Sequence record: NC_047979.1
Source of the DNA: Escherichia phage Gostya9
DNA: 64,000 nt
Reading direction: 5' to 3' (one strand)
Each line of letters begins with the position of its first letter. The first letter of the stretch is position 1. A model generated the notes under the pieces. It was not told where the DNA came from and did no database searches. It saw only the letters and a list, made by a program, of their open reading frames with translations. Below are positions 1,359-32,556 of the stretch, in pieces. Both the position numbers and the translations under genes were made by a program.

Positions 1359-3023
1359 TTACGCGAAAAATTTGCCGTTTTTAAAGTCGATTAACGTGCG
1401 CTGCCCGTTCGCATATGTAATTACATGCGTTTGCGTCCAGCTTGATGCGCCCACGTTATAGCCCATGTCGAGGCTGCCCGATACGCCAGCAGTATATACG
1501 CCGCCGTAAATGCTGGCGGTATGGGTATGCCCCGTGTTTAATTTGCCCAACTTTTTAAACTGTTTCGGATTGCCACGACTCCCGTTAATGCCGTTGTGAC
1601 CGTGTACACCACACTCAATGCCTGCAATTTTAAATGATTGATCAGTGGTCAGGAAAATGGCGTTAAATTCACAACCTGCAACCTTACGTAGCGCATAATC
1701 AAGCACGTTGAAAGTATCGTCATTTTCTGCAATAGCTCCATAGATCGCGGCATTCAGGCGGTGATATAGTTCCGCGTTTGCTGGATCGTCTTTAATGTTA
1801 GCATTACGATCATCCAGCCAGCGAGATAGCGCCAGATCGTGGTTTGATTCAACGATGATTGTTTGCGAGAAATCGCGCTCCATTGATTCCAATACGCGGC
1901 CAGTATCAATGAGATCGTCCAGAACTTTATCACGTCCGGCGGCGTATTGTTTCGCTAGGAATACGCCCGATGCGCGGTTATGGTGGTTGCGTGATGTAAA
2001 GTCATGCACATCATGCACAAACTGATATTTTGGCTTGAGAATATCAAGCAAACTATTTTCGCCCGCCCATGACGCTGCGGCGCACGCCTTATCTAATTTT
2101 TCAGCGTGCACGTCGCCATACTGTAAACCTAAAACATGCCCCGATGTTTCATAGCATCCGGCGGGAGTGGCGCAAATATTCAAATCATAAAAAACGCCGG
2201 TTTCATCCATCGTCTCAAGCTGGCGAACAAAAAATGCCCCGTCCTCGTCGAACTCGACAATCAGCGCGCCAAAGTTATGTAACGCTTCGGCTTTTTGTCC
2301 TGCTTTCTGCTGAATGTAGTTTTTTAGCGTTGCCGCTCCCGTTGAGTACATACGGCGCACTACTTCACCTTTGAGCGCTGGGACACTTTCGGCGGTGATT
2401 TTTGCCGCTCCAATTGCCAGACCTTCAAGATCAAGCGCTGTTGCAGTCTCAGCGAATCCAGAAAGCGGATAGTCTGCCGTTGGCAAAACATTAATTTCAG
2501 CCATGAAAGCAAAGCGGCGATTATTTAAAAACACGTTTTTGCTGCAAATATATTTATCAAATACGGAGTCATATTTGATCCCGTCCGCGCCTTCTCCATT
2601 CTGGAATCCTTTTTTGTTATAAATGAACTTGCTAACCAGCAAATCAGCGCCGATAAATTGGGCGTAATGTTCAAGTGAGGCTAAAAAGTTTTTATGCGGG
2701 AACGTGTTGTTCTGGATTGATGTTATAATAAAGCGTTTACCCTGCTTTACTTCCCACTGTTCAACCGTGCTAGAAACAATACCCGCCGCCTCTGGGCGCT
2801 CGTCGTTTTTAATGGCTTTTTCTACTTTCGCCGCCTTTGGTTTCGCTGGTTTATTTGCTTCTAACCAATCACAGATCGCGGTGGAATGTTTTGTTGTATC
2901 GTACACCGCTTTTGATATATCGTCGCAGACTTCCAATCTAGTAGCGCGCAGACGTTTACCGTAAAAATTAAAATCAGCGGCCAGCTTCAGGATAACGGTT
3001 TGTTTTTCTGCGGAAATAACCAT
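1359..3023 (-). CDS. A1: A1-like pre-early protein with C-terminal metallophosphoesterase motifs
   Basis: 554-aa ORF; GVHGHNG and GHTHT phosphoesterase-type motifs near C-terminus; size close to T5 A1 as recalled (~556 aa). Confidence 0.75.
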   Translation of the reverse strand: MVISAEKQTVILKLAADFNFYGKRLRATRLEVCDDISKAVYDTTKHSTAICDWLEANKPAKPKAAKVEKAIKNDERPEAAGIVSSTVEQWEVKQGKRFIITSIQNNTFPHKNFLASLEHYAQFIGADLLVSKFIYNKKGFQNGEGADGIKYDSVFDKYICSKNVFLNNRRFAFMAEINVLPTADYPLSGFAETATALDLEGLAIGAAKITAESVPALKGEVVRRMYSTGAATLKNYIQQKAGQKAEALHNFGALIVEFDEDGAFFVRQLETMDETGVFYDLNICATPAGCYETSGHVLGLQYGDVHAEKLDKACAAASWAGENSLLDILKPKYQFVHDVHDFTSRNHHNRASGVFLAKQYAAGRDKVLDDLIDTGRVLESMERDFSQTIIVESNHDLALSRWLDDRNANIKDDPANAELYHRLNAAIYGAIAENDDTFNVLDYALRKVAGCEFNAIFLTTDQSFKIAGIECGVHGHNGINGSRGNPKQFKKLGKLNTGHTHTASIYGGVYTAGVSGSLDMGYNVGASSWTQTHVITYANGQRTLIDFKNGKFFA

Positions 3024-3366: not shown

Positions 3367-3375
3367 TAATTAAGT

Positions 3376-3792
3376 TTATTCACCTGCTGACTGTTTTACT
3401 TCATCTGCTACGCCTAGTAATTGCGCTACGGCGTCCAGCGTTTCTAATTTTGCGCTTTCCAGGCTTGCCAGATCGTCAGCGTCTTTGATAATGCCGGAAT
3501 CAATGGCGTGTTTTGCAATTACACGCACATAATGCGCCTTGCGGATTGAACTACCGCCGCCAACTTTGCGCGGTTTATCGCTTTTCTGATACGCTTTTGC
3601 GCTGGTCAATTTTGAGCGAACAGACACAGGGGAAGTAGCGCCCACTGTTTTGGCGATCTCTTTCAGGCCGTCGCTGTTGGCGAACTCAAGGCCGTTTTCA
3701 TTGATTAACTGCTGATACATAGAAACGGCTTTTTGGGTATTTTCTTCATTCCATGCAAATTTTGCGGATTTTTCGGTTTTAACGTTAGTCAT
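3376..3792 (-). CDS. putative HTH DNA-binding pre-early protein (possible A2-like)
   Basis: 138-aa ORF; helix-turn-helix-like segment LKEIAKTVGATSPVSVRSKL; conserved RBS context; A2 assignment is a guess. Confidence 0.45.
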   Translation of the reverse strand: MTNVKTEKSAKFAWNEENTQKAVSMYQQLINENGLEFANSDGLKEIAKTVGATSPVSVRSKLTSAKAYQKSDKPRKVGGGSSIRKAHYVRVIAKHAIDSGIIKDADDLASLESAKLETLDAVAQLLGVADEVKQSAGE

Positions 3793-26137: not shown

Positions 26138-26231
26138 TGGCAGAAGGTAGTGGATTTGAACCACTGATCAGGATTTCAGAGACCTCGGCCTTAACCGACT
26201 TGGCTCAGGTTCTTCAAGGCGCTTACCTTCA
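26138..26231 (-). tRNA. tRNA-like element with canonical 3' half; 5' boundary and anticodon unresolved
   Basis: CCA, acceptor 3' strand and T-arm GGTTCAAATCC are clear; D-arm GCC-AAGTCGGTTAA-GGC present but acceptor closure is ambiguous; overlaps 3' end of ORF 26168..26377. Confidence 0.3.
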
Positions 26232-27011: not shown

Positions 27012-27106
27012 TGGAGGTAGGTAAGGGGATCGAACCCTTACACCGTATCACTACGATCAACCGATTTCAAGTCGGAGTCCAGCGCCAGCCGTTGGATTGA
27101 CCTACC
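27012..27106 (-). tRNA. tRNA-Ser (UGA), type II
   Basis: 95 nt; perfect acceptor GGTAGGT; anticodon loop CTTGAAA; long variable arm. Confidence 0.5.
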
Positions 27107-27118
27107 ATATAAATTGTT

Positions 27119-27209
27119 TGGCGGAAGAGGAGAGATTTGAACTCTCAAGCCGTTTTACCAGTCAGCCACTTTCCAAGCGGTTTTCGTCGCCAATTCGATT
27201 TGCTCTTCC
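27119..27209 (-). tRNA. tRNA-Ser (GGA), type II
   Basis: 91 nt; perfect acceptor GGAAGAG; anticodon loop TTGGAAA; long variable arm. Confidence 0.5.
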
Positions 27210-27398: not shown

Positions 27399-27406
27399 GT
27401 ATTTTG

Positions 27407-27477
27407 TGGAGAAAGAGGGAGTTGAACCCTCGTCTTCTGCGTGCAAAGCAGATGTTCTACCATTAAACTATATCCCC
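27407..27477 (-). tRNA. tRNA-Ala (UGC)
   Basis: anticodon stem TCTGC/GCAGA with loop TTTGCAC; G3-U70 wobble pair present; CCA not encoded. Confidence 0.55.
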
Positions 27478-27714
27478 AAATTCTTTAGTTTACTAAGGCT
27501 ATTAGCTCGGCGTAACTACAGCACCTTCGCTTCGAGCGGAAGGAACCGCGTCATCTCGCAAACCCGATACACTATTCAGTTGCCGCTGAATCTAGTGGAC
27601 TAATCTAGAACTTCTCCCGAGTCGTAGGATCGTGCTTTTTGGCAGCCAGTCCTAGGTCGAGCTAATACCTTAGTGAACTATGATGAGGATTTCTCCCCAT
27701 CAATTTATATAAAT

Positions 27715-27743
27715 ATTATAACAAGAAATTAAGCATCAAGCAA
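27715..27743 (-). promoter_or_regulatory. sigma70-type promoter heading the tRNA / small-RNA unit
   Basis: TTGCTT-17-TATAAT on minus strand; no protein gene downstream before tRNAs. Confidence 0.6.
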
Positions 27744-27761
27744 ATGAGTTTTTCTTGAAAT

Positions 27762-27837
27762 TGGTAGCGGGTTCCAGTACTGCCCTGGACTTACTTAGCT
27801 TATGAGACTAAGAAGAACTCTATGCCTTCCACCCGCA
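27762..27837 (-). tRNA. tRNA, tentative Met/Ile2 (CAU); atypical T-loop
   Basis: CCA + acceptor; anticodon stem CTTAGT/GCTAAG with loop CTCATAA; T-loop GGCAGTA non-canonical. Confidence 0.4.
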
Positions 27838-27843
27838 ATTATT

Positions 27844-27907
27844 TGGTCAGTGCGGCAGGACTCGAACCTGCGACCCGAATCATCCAGGGATCCCACGCTA
27901 CGCACTG
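27844..27907 (-). tRNA. truncated tRNA-like element (64 nt)
   Basis: perfect 7-bp acceptor CAGTGCG/CGCACTG, CCA and canonical T-arm GCAGG-TTCGAGT-CCTGC, but only 29 nt between them. Confidence 0.3.
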
Positions 27908-27915
27908 AAATTTTA

Positions 27916-28263
27916 TTAGTTTAACCGTAAAGTATTATCTACTTCACCATTAATTGTTCGGCATTCCTCTGGGATTGTCGGAGTGGCCTTGTATTCCCAC
28001 CACTCAGCACCATCATATTCCCCACGTTCTAGCCAAGTTCCATCGGCAAACCATACATTACCATAAAGTAATTGTCCACCGTATCCAGAATCATATTCAA
28101 AGTCTAGGTTATTAAGAAAATCCCCAATATCTTCTTCTGTATAACCTAAAGGTAATACCCAAACTTTTTTGTCCCCATAATACCCGAATTCTATTTTAAT
28201 ACACTTAACTTTAGAATTGGTATTTTTTAAGGCGAGTAGCAGCTCTTCTTTAGCATTACGCAT
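27916..28263 (-). CDS. hypothetical protein
   Basis: 115-aa ORF. Confidence 0.45.
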   Translation of the reverse strand: MRNAKEELLLALKNTNSKVKCIKIEFGYYGDKKVWVLPLGYTEEDIGDFLNNLDFEYDSGYGGQLLYGNVWFADGTWLERGEYDGAEWWEYKATPTIPEECRTINGEVDNTLRLN

Positions 28264-28288
28264 AGTATATTCTCATACTGAGTTAATT

Positions 28289-28362
28289 TGGCGCGACCGA
28301 TGGGATTTGAACCCACATTCCCCGTGACAGGGGAGTACCATTACCAAGCCAGCCCCTGTCGC
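28289..28362 (-). tRNA. tRNA-Asp (GUC)
   Basis: anticodon loop CTGTCAC flanked by CTCCC/GGGGA stem; T-arm GGGTTCAAATCCC; CCA encoded. Confidence 0.55.
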
Positions 28363-28371
28363 ATAATTCAT

Positions 28372-28557
28372 TTACTCATATTTGAGTTTTTCAATAGCTG
28401 CATTAAGTTCTTTTAGAGCTTCACGACGTTCTACCTGACCTTGAAGTTCTTCAAGAAGTTCCGCTTTCAGAGTCTCAATAATTTTACCACGAACCTTGAT
28501 ATTATTAATCAGATTATCACGATCAGCTTCTAGTCGAGCAATTGCATGAGTTGTCAT
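28372..28557 (-). CDS. small coiled-coil protein
   Basis: 61-aa ORF. Confidence 0.4.
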   Translation of the reverse strand: MTTHAIARLEADRDNLINNIKVRGKIIETLKAELLEELQGQVERREALKELNAAIEKLKYE

Positions 28558-28584
28558 ATCTATTTCCTCAGTTATTAATGAAAA

Positions 28585-28658
28585 TGGTATCTGTGGCTGA
28601 ATTTGATGTCAGCAATGATAGCTGGTTGGCTACCGGTTTACTTAACTCTACACAGAAT
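28585..28658 (-). tRNA. tRNA, anticodon unresolved
   Basis: CCA + acceptor + T-arm GCTGA..TCAGC; candidate anticodon loop TATCATT. Confidence 0.4.
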
Positions 28659-28659
28659 T

Positions 28660-28740
28660 TGGCGGGCCGTGTAGGATTCGAACCACCAACCCCGAAGGGC
28701 ACGGATTTACAGACCGCTGCAATAGCCATTCTGCCAACGA
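28660..28740 (-). tRNA. tRNA-Tyr (GUA)-like, type II; acceptor closure not confirmed
   Basis: anticodon loop CTGTAAA, variable arm CCC-TTCG-GGG, T-loop TTCGAAT and CCA; no complementary 5' acceptor strand found. Confidence 0.4.
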
Positions 28741-28939
28741 TGTACATTTAAAAGTATTCAAATACTTGTTTAAACACTTTTAAATATGTTTCCAACTTAG
28801 ATAACTATTATATCTAGTTTTAAGGCACTGAGCAAGTCAGATTTTGAAGAATTTGCTCAGTGCTATATTAGTTAGTCGAACTTAGGAGTAACAATTAAAG
28901 AGAATGGGAGTTCGAAAACTTCATCAATTTATACAACTA

Positions 28940-31899: not shown

Positions 31900-32408
31900 A
31901 TTCCTGTGTCGATATTTTTAAGAACTCTCGTAAAAACTCTTAAAAATACAGACGATACCGGGAGAGTCATAAGTCTCACTCATTAAGTATTTCAAGACAA
32001 AATACAGTAACGTCTATTATTTTCCAGTTTAAGTCAAGGTGACTTAGTGGTTATGCCCTGCGGTATACTGGGGACTCGGTTAGGTTAGGGTCATGACTTC
32101 CTACCTTTTTGCTGCTACTCAACAGGAGTTATCGCGAATTACCTGTGCTATTGTGCACCATTAGTGGCATCTCTCATGCCAGCATTTCCCACTTTGTGGA
32201 TAGTTTGAAAAACTACTCCGATATGGAGGGAGAACTTCACTATCCTAGAATACCTTCTAAAGTTCTTCTTTAGCCTGGACATAGTTAAATCGTAATAAAA
32301 CTATTCAGCAGACTGGTTGGTTAGCCTGGAACCAACTACCGCGTGGTTTAGGCAGTGCGCAACTAACCTCGGAAGCTTTTACGTTAAAAGCACCAGTTAT
32401 CCAGTTCT

Positions 32409-32480
32409 TACCGATCGTAGGATTCGAACCTACATCTTCCACCAGTTACGGCTTGATAATACCGTTTATACTAGATCGGC
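32409..32480 (-). tRNA. tRNA, anticodon unresolved
   Basis: acceptor GCCGATC/GATCGGT, T-arm GTAGG-TTCGAAT-CCTAC; CCA not encoded. Confidence 0.45.
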
Positions 32481-32556
32481 AGTGTTACTACATAAGTGAT
32501 TTCCACACCCCACTATTTATAACTTAGAGAAGAATTACTCTCTAATTTATGAATAT

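Follow-up and report, generated by a model that had tools for sequence, protein, structure and literature searches.

A D-arm-deleted tRNA-Pro(UGG) homologue in the tRNA cluster of a Tequintavirus is a probable tRNA pseudogene in the making

Results

A 64-nt tRNA-like element retains three arms of a tRNA-Pro(UGG)

The window analyzed in this study, that is, the whole 64,000-nt stretch of Escherichia phage Gostya9 DNA (NC_047979.1), is Tequintavirus sequence closest to Escherichia phage DT571/2; over the 1 kb surrounding the locus described here, identity is 97.9% to DT571/2 and 96.5% to DT57C. A tRNA-like element of 64 nt lies on the minus strand between an ORF and a second tRNA-like element (Table 1). 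Read from 27907 to 27844, it divides into CAGTGCG-TAGCGTG-GGATC-CCTGGAT-GATTC-GGGTC-GCAGG-TTCGAGT-CCTGC-CGCACTG-A-CCA. As in a canonical cloverleaf, the acceptor stem is 7 bp long, with all seven pairs Watson-Crick and C1-G72 among them, and the T-loop is of the UUCRANY type. The anticodon arm is composed of a 5-bp stem, which contains a U30-A40 pair (27890/27880), and a 7-nt loop with the proline anticodon UGG at 27884-27886. All three remaining stems are fully paired, and A73, G35, G36, A37 and the CCA end are intact. A canonical D-arm has a 3-4-bp stem and a loop whose G18 and G19 dock on the T-loop; at its place the element has the connector UAGCGUG only. A single copy of the hexamer GTAGCG is left (27896-27901), and C48 is kept in the variable loop while its Levitt partner G15 is deleted. 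Although the 5-bp stem and 7-nt loop of the anticodon arm are present, position 33 (27887) is C in the window, whereas all other homologues carry U. U33 is near-universal in tRNAs, and no other position of the anticodon loop is as conserved.

The original prediction, made from the letters of the window, had described 64 nt with a perfect 7-bp acceptor stem, an encoded CCA, a canonical T-arm and 29 nt between acceptor stem and T-arm, and reading the sequence again gave the same counts. It was also correct that 29 nt is too short for a D-arm and an anticodon arm together. What it overlooked is that this spacer holds an intact anticodon arm specifying proline as well as a 5-nt variable loop, so that the D-arm alone is absent.

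Table 1. Features of the tRNA-Pro(UGG) locus and the neighboring tRNA region (window positions)
Feature	Position	Strand	Basis
D-arm-deleted tRNA-Pro(UGG) homologue, 64 nt including encoded CCA	27844..27907	(-)	sequence, Rfam, homologue alignment
Acceptor stem 5' strand CAGTGCG; pairs with 27848-27854 (CGCACTG)	27901..27907	(-)	sequence
7-nt connector UAGCGUG in place of the D-arm; holds the deletion junction	27894..27900	(-)	alignment, allele table
Anticodon arm GGAUC-CCUGGAU-GAUUC	27877..27893	(-)	sequence
Variable loop GGGUC, 5 nt	27872..27876	(-)	sequence, alignment
T-arm GCAGG-UUCGAGU-CCUGC	27855..27871	(-)	sequence; same in all 76-nt homologues
Acceptor 3' strand CGCACUG, discriminator A73 and encoded CCA	27844..27854	(-)	sequence
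115-aa ORF, T5.067 / BF23 ORF trn2.10 homologue	27916..28263	(-)	ORF list, DT571/2 and BF23 annotations
tRNA-fMet-like element, 76 nt, anticodon CAU; 6 nt downstream of the 64-mer	27762..27837	(-)	BF23 alignment; aragorn -mt, -ps80
tRNA-Asp(GUC) homologue	28292..28362	(-)	
Homologue of BF23 promoter P13b	27690..27760	(-)	
Homologue of the 172-nt RNA2H	~27497..27668	(-)	
Two long-arm tRNA-Ser genes	27016..27209	(-)	
Weak tRNA match at the DT571/2 tRNA-Gln(CUG) position	26141..26213	(-)	33.5 bits
tRNA-Ser(ACU)	32408..32481	(-)	ARAGORN; Rfam, 39 bits

tRNA detection programs recognize the element only in part

tRNA detection was performed using Infernal with the Rfam model RF00005 and ARAGORN in several modes. 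In more permissive local searches, the 64-mer reached 33.4 bits with RF00005, whose gathering score is 29 (E=4.7e-5 in 801 nt, E=5e-4 in 9 kb), and the alignment displays the D-arm positions of the model as deleted ([11]->[0]). By these scores the element is a real feature and no chance match. In the whole window, default ARAGORN called 12 tRNAs that do not include the 64-mer, and an Rfam scan of the whole window with gathering thresholds and default filters missed it as well. Since both of these searches pass over 27844-27907, no standard tRNA is hidden there, and the concern in the original prediction that its hand indexing might be off could be set aside. ARAGORN in bacterial mode made no call on the 64-mer of the window or of DT571/2, even with thresholds lowered to 60%, while the 76-nt controls from ESCO30 and DT57C were called. 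The relaxed, organellar-type search that had been proposed was also run. In mitochondrial mode (aragorn -mt), which allows D-replacement loops, the DT571/2 64-mer was called exactly as tRNA-Pro(UGG); the window copy was not called at default thresholds and appeared only at thresholds of 70% or lower, with a shifted and mismatched acceptor stem. The poorer result for the window copy may be attributable to C33. A search for a second tRNA-Pro in the window with ARAGORN and Rfam detected none.

Default ARAGORN missed the two long-arm tRNA-Ser genes both in the window and in DT571/2; one of them, tRNA-Ser(GGA), is identical to the experimentally characterized tRNA-Ser2 of BF23, and the other is matched only by the Rfam tRNA-Sec model, whose gathering score of 47 it does not reach (38.3 bits). 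Because these genes are missed, failure of default ARAGORN is by itself no evidence of degeneracy, and the rule that an ARAGORN miss marks a degenerate gene was dropped for the neighbors. At the position of the DT571/2 tRNA-Gln(CUG), ARAGORN calls the gene in DT571/2 but not in the window, where there is a weak tRNA match. The tRNA-Ser(ACU) called by ARAGORN has an unusual anticodon assignment and a modest Rfam score.

The 64-mer equals the 76-nt tRNA-Pro gene minus one unit of a tandem repeat

The orthologous 64 nt in DT571/2 (KM979355 26773-26836) are annotated as tRNA-Pro(UGG), and the curated record of the BF23 tRNA region (AJ604530 5210-5285) has a tRNA-Pro of 76 nt. Homology, the same upstream ORF and the same downstream fMet-like element identify the window locus as orthologous to the T5-family tRNA-Pro(UGG). 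The original prediction had proposed a comparison with the T5 tRNA region and had listed a degenerate tRNA among its readings. In the alignments, the 64-mer equals the 76-mer of BF23 and ESCO30 minus exactly 12 nt, an internal deletion that removes the D-arm, and it is identical at 61 of 64 positions to the matching part of the intact 76-nt ESCO30 gene. These alignments support the degenerate-tRNA reading. The tRNA-Pro gene is 76 nt long in all 20 fetched homologous loci except DT571/2; the 20 loci are 17 IMG/VR contigs plus GenBank records, with some genomes (DT571/2, BF23) fetched twice. We had considered the BLAST identity class as a proxy for allele type, and this was dropped since the 95.3% class proved to be full length in the four members checked (vB_Sen_I1, smaug, ESCO30 and ESCO40, with phagemcphageface left out).

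The 5' end of the 76-nt gene is an imperfect 12-nt tandem repeat, CAGTGCGTAGCG followed by CAGTTGGTAGCG, in which 10 of 12 positions are identical. Full-length genes read CAGTGC-GTAGCG-CAGTTG-GTAGCG-TGGGA, so the hexamer GTAGCG is present exactly in both units, 12 nt apart, and dropping one repeat unit from the 76-mer yields precisely the 64-mer. Because of the tandem repeat, the 64-mer also aligns without gaps to the last 64 nt of the full-length genes. In the intact gene, CAGTGCGTAGCG comprises the 5' strands of the acceptor stem and D-stem, and the adjoining near-copy CAGTTGGTAGCG the D-loop and 3' strand of the D-stem. In the model that we favor, replication slippage or illegitimate recombination within the GTAGCG hexamer would lose one 12-nt unit, which would take away the whole D-arm and leave the 7-nt connector. 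The loss of a single unit fits a slipped-strand deletion of this kind, and from the structure of the junction we infer repeat-mediated slippage or illegitimate recombination as the obvious mechanism. The alignments thus point to the 64-mer as a descendant of the T5-family tRNA-Pro(UGG) that lost its D-arm in one repeat-mediated step.

Substitutions in the deleted allele bear no sign of compensation

The 64-mers of the window and DT571/2 differ by four substitutions: the window has U30-A40, C33 and G44, and DT571/2 has G30-C40, U33 and A44. The U30-A40 pair was considered as a compensatory change after the deletion, which would have been a sign of selection. This was ruled out since the intact 76-nt alleles of ESCO30, ESCO40, vB_Sen_I1 and smaug carry the same pair, which makes it older than the deletion; BF23 has G30-C40. 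The sole change private to the window is U33 to C, which is absent from the DT571/2 copy. The flanking haplotypes are mosaic: upstream, the window shares four derived sites and the deletion with DT571/2, and from the anticodon stem onward (downstream) it matches DT57C and ESCO30. A single deletion event followed by recombination would be the economical reading, and independent recurrence of the deletion at the slippage-prone repeat may be the alternative. Local divergence between the two phages carrying the allele is about 2%. Had they inherited the deletion from a common ancestor, the allele would have persisted for some time without further disruption, a point against decay that is drawn from two sequences. 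It also speaks against decay that, beyond the D-arm and U33, no part of the 64-mer is damaged.

The deleted allele is confined to two phages

We found the deleted allele in the window and DT571/2 only. The 17-mer spanning the junction matched only DT571/2 in IMG/VR; 19 matches in metagenomes were rejected as chance, with 26-35 identities over 64 nt and no tRNA features. In GenBank, four distinct phages have the ORF directly followed by tRNA-Pro. The span of this context is 147 in DT571/2 (deleted) and 159 in ESCO30 and DT57C (full length), and the fourth phage, HZ_ZJUN2, is diverged (76.7% identity) with a span of 162. The armless form is not conserved across the lineage, as DT57C, ESCO30 and the other T5-like phages sampled keep 76 nt. 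The allele is therefore rare and young, given its confinement to DT571/2 and the window in the IMG/VR, metagenome and GenBank comparisons. By their titles and abstracts, the papers listed for DT57C/DT571 do not take the 64-nt annotation as a subject.

The tRNA cluster of this clade is being eroded

The 115-aa ORF lies upstream of the 64-mer and its stop codon is 8 nt before the start of the 64-mer. A Pfam search of the ORF gave no match. BF23 tRNA-Pro is preceded by the promoter P13a; P13a is absent from the window and no promoter was found between the ORF and the 64-mer. Terminator-like sites were not found across 27400-28800. Compared with BF23, the window's clade is without the RNA2/tRNA-Gly2/RNAIV/P13a block upstream of tRNA-Pro and without an ORF/tRNA-Lys/tRNA-Val block downstream of the fMet-like element, and loss of the former has deprived the 64-mer of its promoter. 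The homology that the window shares with T5, BF23 and most others breaks off precisely after the first 6 nt of the tRNA-Pro gene (CAGTGC). BF23 also contains an unannotated element of about 105 nt after its trn2.10 homologue (AJ604530 ~3375-3481, minus strand), which starts with CAGTGCA and ends with TGCACTG and whose acceptor-like stem is almost identical to that of tRNA-Pro. Since homology ends at CAGTGC and this hexamer is repeated in the CAGTGCA element of BF23, the larger loss also seems to have been joined at a short repeat: the deletion of the RNA2/tRNA-Gly2/RNAIV/P13a block appears to have crossed over within the 6-nt repeat CAGTGC (window 27902-27927).

Other tRNA genes of the clade carry lesions as well. 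In the 76-nt tRNA-Pro of DT57C (KM979354 locus, 1947-2022, minus strand), the anticodon stem is interrupted by two mismatches, C30.A40 and G28.G42, there is a U6.G67 wobble, and the anticodon is CGG, whereas the record states UGG. We take these mismatches as a sign of relaxed constraint on tRNA-Pro in the clade. In the window, DT571/2 and DT57C, the tRNA-Asp(GUC) homologue has lost 3 nt (AGA/AGG) from the anticodon-stem 3' strand and variable loop, which ESCO30 and BF23 retain. In the window, this gene also has a private C6 to A acceptor mismatch; with 27.9 bits it falls short of the Rfam gathering score (29), and ARAGORN does not call it. The DT571/2 record labels the homologue tRNA-Asp(UGG). 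Taken over tRNA-Pro, tRNA-Asp and the two multi-gene blocks, these comparisons indicate that the tRNA cluster of the clade is being reduced.

A non-canonical fMet-like element adjoins the 64-mer

In its U1.U72 mismatch, the downstream element resembles BF23 tRNA-fMet, and its acceptor and anticodon arms match this initiator tRNA. Its D-arm (AAGG-CAUAGAGU-UCUU) and T-arm (UCCAG-GGCAGUA-CUGGA) are completely unlike those of BF23 tRNA-fMet. Pairing is perfect in the T-stem and includes one G.U wobble in the D-stem; the T-loop is without UUC and the D-loop without GG, a joint change of the two elbow partners. DT571/2 has this allele, unannotated, and so do DT57C, ESCO30, SP3, SE11, vB_Sen_I1 and smaug. 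Default ARAGORN and Rfam missed it and aragorn -mt and -ps80 called it. Because both stems are fully replaced with pairing kept, the element seems to be structured, which suggests a possibly functional non-canonical tRNA, and it looks more interesting than the 64-mer. Just upstream of the RNA2H homologue, the homologue of BF23 promoter P13b was not flagged by a simple sigma-70 scan; RNA2H itself is annotated as a stable RNA with unknown functions in DT571/2, DT57C and BF23.

The transcript may be excised but is unlikely to decode

The 64-mer gene, 8 nt downstream of the ORF, would belong to a polycistronic early transcription unit, and RNase P together with 3' exonucleases could release an RNA of about 64 nt from its transcript. 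Bacterial RNase P tolerates extensive tRNA truncation (PMC4919922), and the sequence of the 64-mer has the features that this enzyme requires, namely a 12-bp coaxial acceptor plus T helix, A73 and CCA. Because the acceptor/T-arm helix, A73 and encoded CCA are kept and the gene sits in a transcription unit, excision is plausible, and the 64-mer is probably still transcribed and excised. The determinants for recognition of E. coli tRNA-Pro by ProRS are G72, A73, G35, G36, position 37 and the G15-C48 Levitt pair (PMC9976931). C1-G72, A73, G35 and G36 are all in the sequence of the 64-mer; the G15-C48 pair is not, as G15 is within the deleted 12 nt. Loss of the D-arm also removes G18/G19, and with them the D-loop/T-loop elbow, and the U8-A14 contact. 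Since the elbow, G15-C48 and U8-A14 are lost, and the window copy also lacks U33, it is unlikely that the 64-nt RNA is charged efficiently or works on the bacterial ribosome.

In folding predictions, the D-armless cloverleaf has -20.1 kcal/mol and a competing rod fold -24.2 kcal/mol, and the z-score of the 64-mer is -1.08, no better than shuffled sequences. The cloverleaf is not the minimum free energy fold even for the intact 76-nt alleles, and for this reason the folding evidence weighs little.

Discussion

An internally deleted tRNA gene is a well-known kind of feature. We consider the 64-mer likely, with good confidence, to be an eroding tRNA-Pro(UGG) gene, that is, a tRNA pseudogene in the making, which would persist because the phage tRNA cluster is dispensable and under reduction in this clade. 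It could also be asked whether the element is a functional D-armless tRNA-Pro that is charged by the host ProRS and decodes CCN, as the mitochondrial tRNA-Ser(AGY) does without a D-arm. The intact acceptor, anticodon and T arms with their retained ProRS determinants and CCA, the exact call of the DT571/2 copy by aragorn -mt, the presence of the allele in two phages and the failure to detect another tRNA-Pro in the window would all fit a working tRNA. Yet the G15-C48 determinant is lost along with the elbow contacts, C33 replaces U33 in the window copy, which aragorn -mt passes over at default thresholds, and the allele is limited to two close relatives whose sisters DT57C and ESCO30 keep 76 nt. 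In DT57C, moreover, the stem mismatches argue for relaxed selection on tRNA-Pro. The host has its own tRNA-Pro, which makes loss of the phage copy tolerable, and armless tRNAs are known only from organelles whose factors have adapted to them: in mitochondria they depend on a specially adapted CCA-adding enzyme and EF-Tu (bioRxiv 10.64898/2026.06.12.731814). A decoding role is hence quite improbable in our judgment. We regard it as still harder to believe that the RNA is expressed, stable and active, either as the first natural D-armless tRNA used by bacterial translation or as a C33-tuned decoy against host tRNA-directed defence.

A role that does without decoding, in which the tRNA-derived RNA serves as a decoy, for RNase P or for a host nuclease that attacks tRNAs, or as a regulatory small RNA, is likewise improbable. 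The T5 and BF23 clusters do hold stable, tRNA-like RNAs annotated with unknown function (BF23 RNA1, RNA2 and RNA3), and it has been proposed that phage tRNAs help against host anticodon nucleases, in part by alterations of the anticodon loop (PMC10264068; PMC10644984), of which U33C in the window copy would be one. This change is, however, absent from the DT571/2 copy, and the element derives from tRNA-Pro by one simple deletion and has not specialized further. A decoy would predict spread or conservation of the allele, and neither was seen beyond two near-identical phages. We know of no nuclease targeting tRNA-Pro(UGG) in E. coli, which also counts against a decoy. The original prediction had offered a regulatory RNA and a decoy for RNase P or CCA enzyme as further readings, and these found no backing: apart from the confinement of the allele, its sole private change falls on the near-universal U33, and sister genomes either keep the 76-nt form or damage it independently. 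As for a sequencing or assembly artefact, in which the 12-nt tandem repeat of a truly 76-nt gene had collapsed, short tandem repeats are indeed sites of assembly or polymerase slippage errors. Nevertheless, the junction is identical in the independently sequenced DT571/2 (KM979355), the 76-nt form was obtained by the same submitters for its co-isolated sister DT57C, and a two-copy imperfect 12-nt repeat is much too small to collapse during assembly, all of which makes an artefact extremely improbable.

As an eroding tRNA-Pro(UGG) gene, the 64-mer is largely a matter of annotation hygiene, since its DT571/2 orthologue is already in GenBank as a plain tRNA-Pro. Because a 64-mer of this type is labeled as an ordinary tRNA-Pro, counts of phage tRNAs taken from labels overstate decoding capacity. 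The 12-nt tandem near-repeat across acceptor and D-stem would predispose this tRNA to clean, one-step loss of the D-arm. If the RNA is stable in infected cells, it would offer a natural substrate on which E. coli RNase P, ProRS and tRNA quality control meet a D-armless tRNA.

The closest known relatives of the element are the T5-like tRNA-Pro(UGG) genes (BF23 tRNAP, ESCO30, vB_Sen_I1 and smaug), which have the same acceptor stem, T-arm, variable loop, discriminator, CCA and anticodon and the same position relative to the downstream fMet-like element. The window copy differs from them in being without 12 nt of the D-loop and one D-stem strand and in C33; against the ESCO30 allele, the 12-nt indel and position 33 are the only differences. 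The DT571/2 64-mer is the same as the window copy in length, junction, flanking ORF and downstream element at the orthologous locus, and its GenBank record gives it a tRNA label with the missing D-arm unmentioned. The stable RNAs of T5 and BF23 (RNA1, RNA2, RNA3, RNAI, RNAIII and RNA2H) belong to the same cluster, are co-transcribed with tRNAs and have tRNA-like termini, but they are longer (73-172 nt as annotated) and occur in several T5-like phages, whereas the 64-mer is tRNA-Pro minus 12 nt. The T-arm of RNA2 (GCAGG-TTCGAAT-CCTGC) resembles that of the 64-mer and the rest of RNA2 is unrelated. Mammalian mitochondrial tRNA-Ser(AGY) and the D-armless tRNA-Ser of nematodes and arachnids share with the 64-mer the order of acceptor, connector, anticodon arm, variable loop and T-arm. 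These D-armless mitochondrial tRNAs are conserved across whole clades and served by co-adapted organellar factors, whereas the phage 64-mer is recent and sporadic, depends on the E. coli machinery and carries no sign of compensation.
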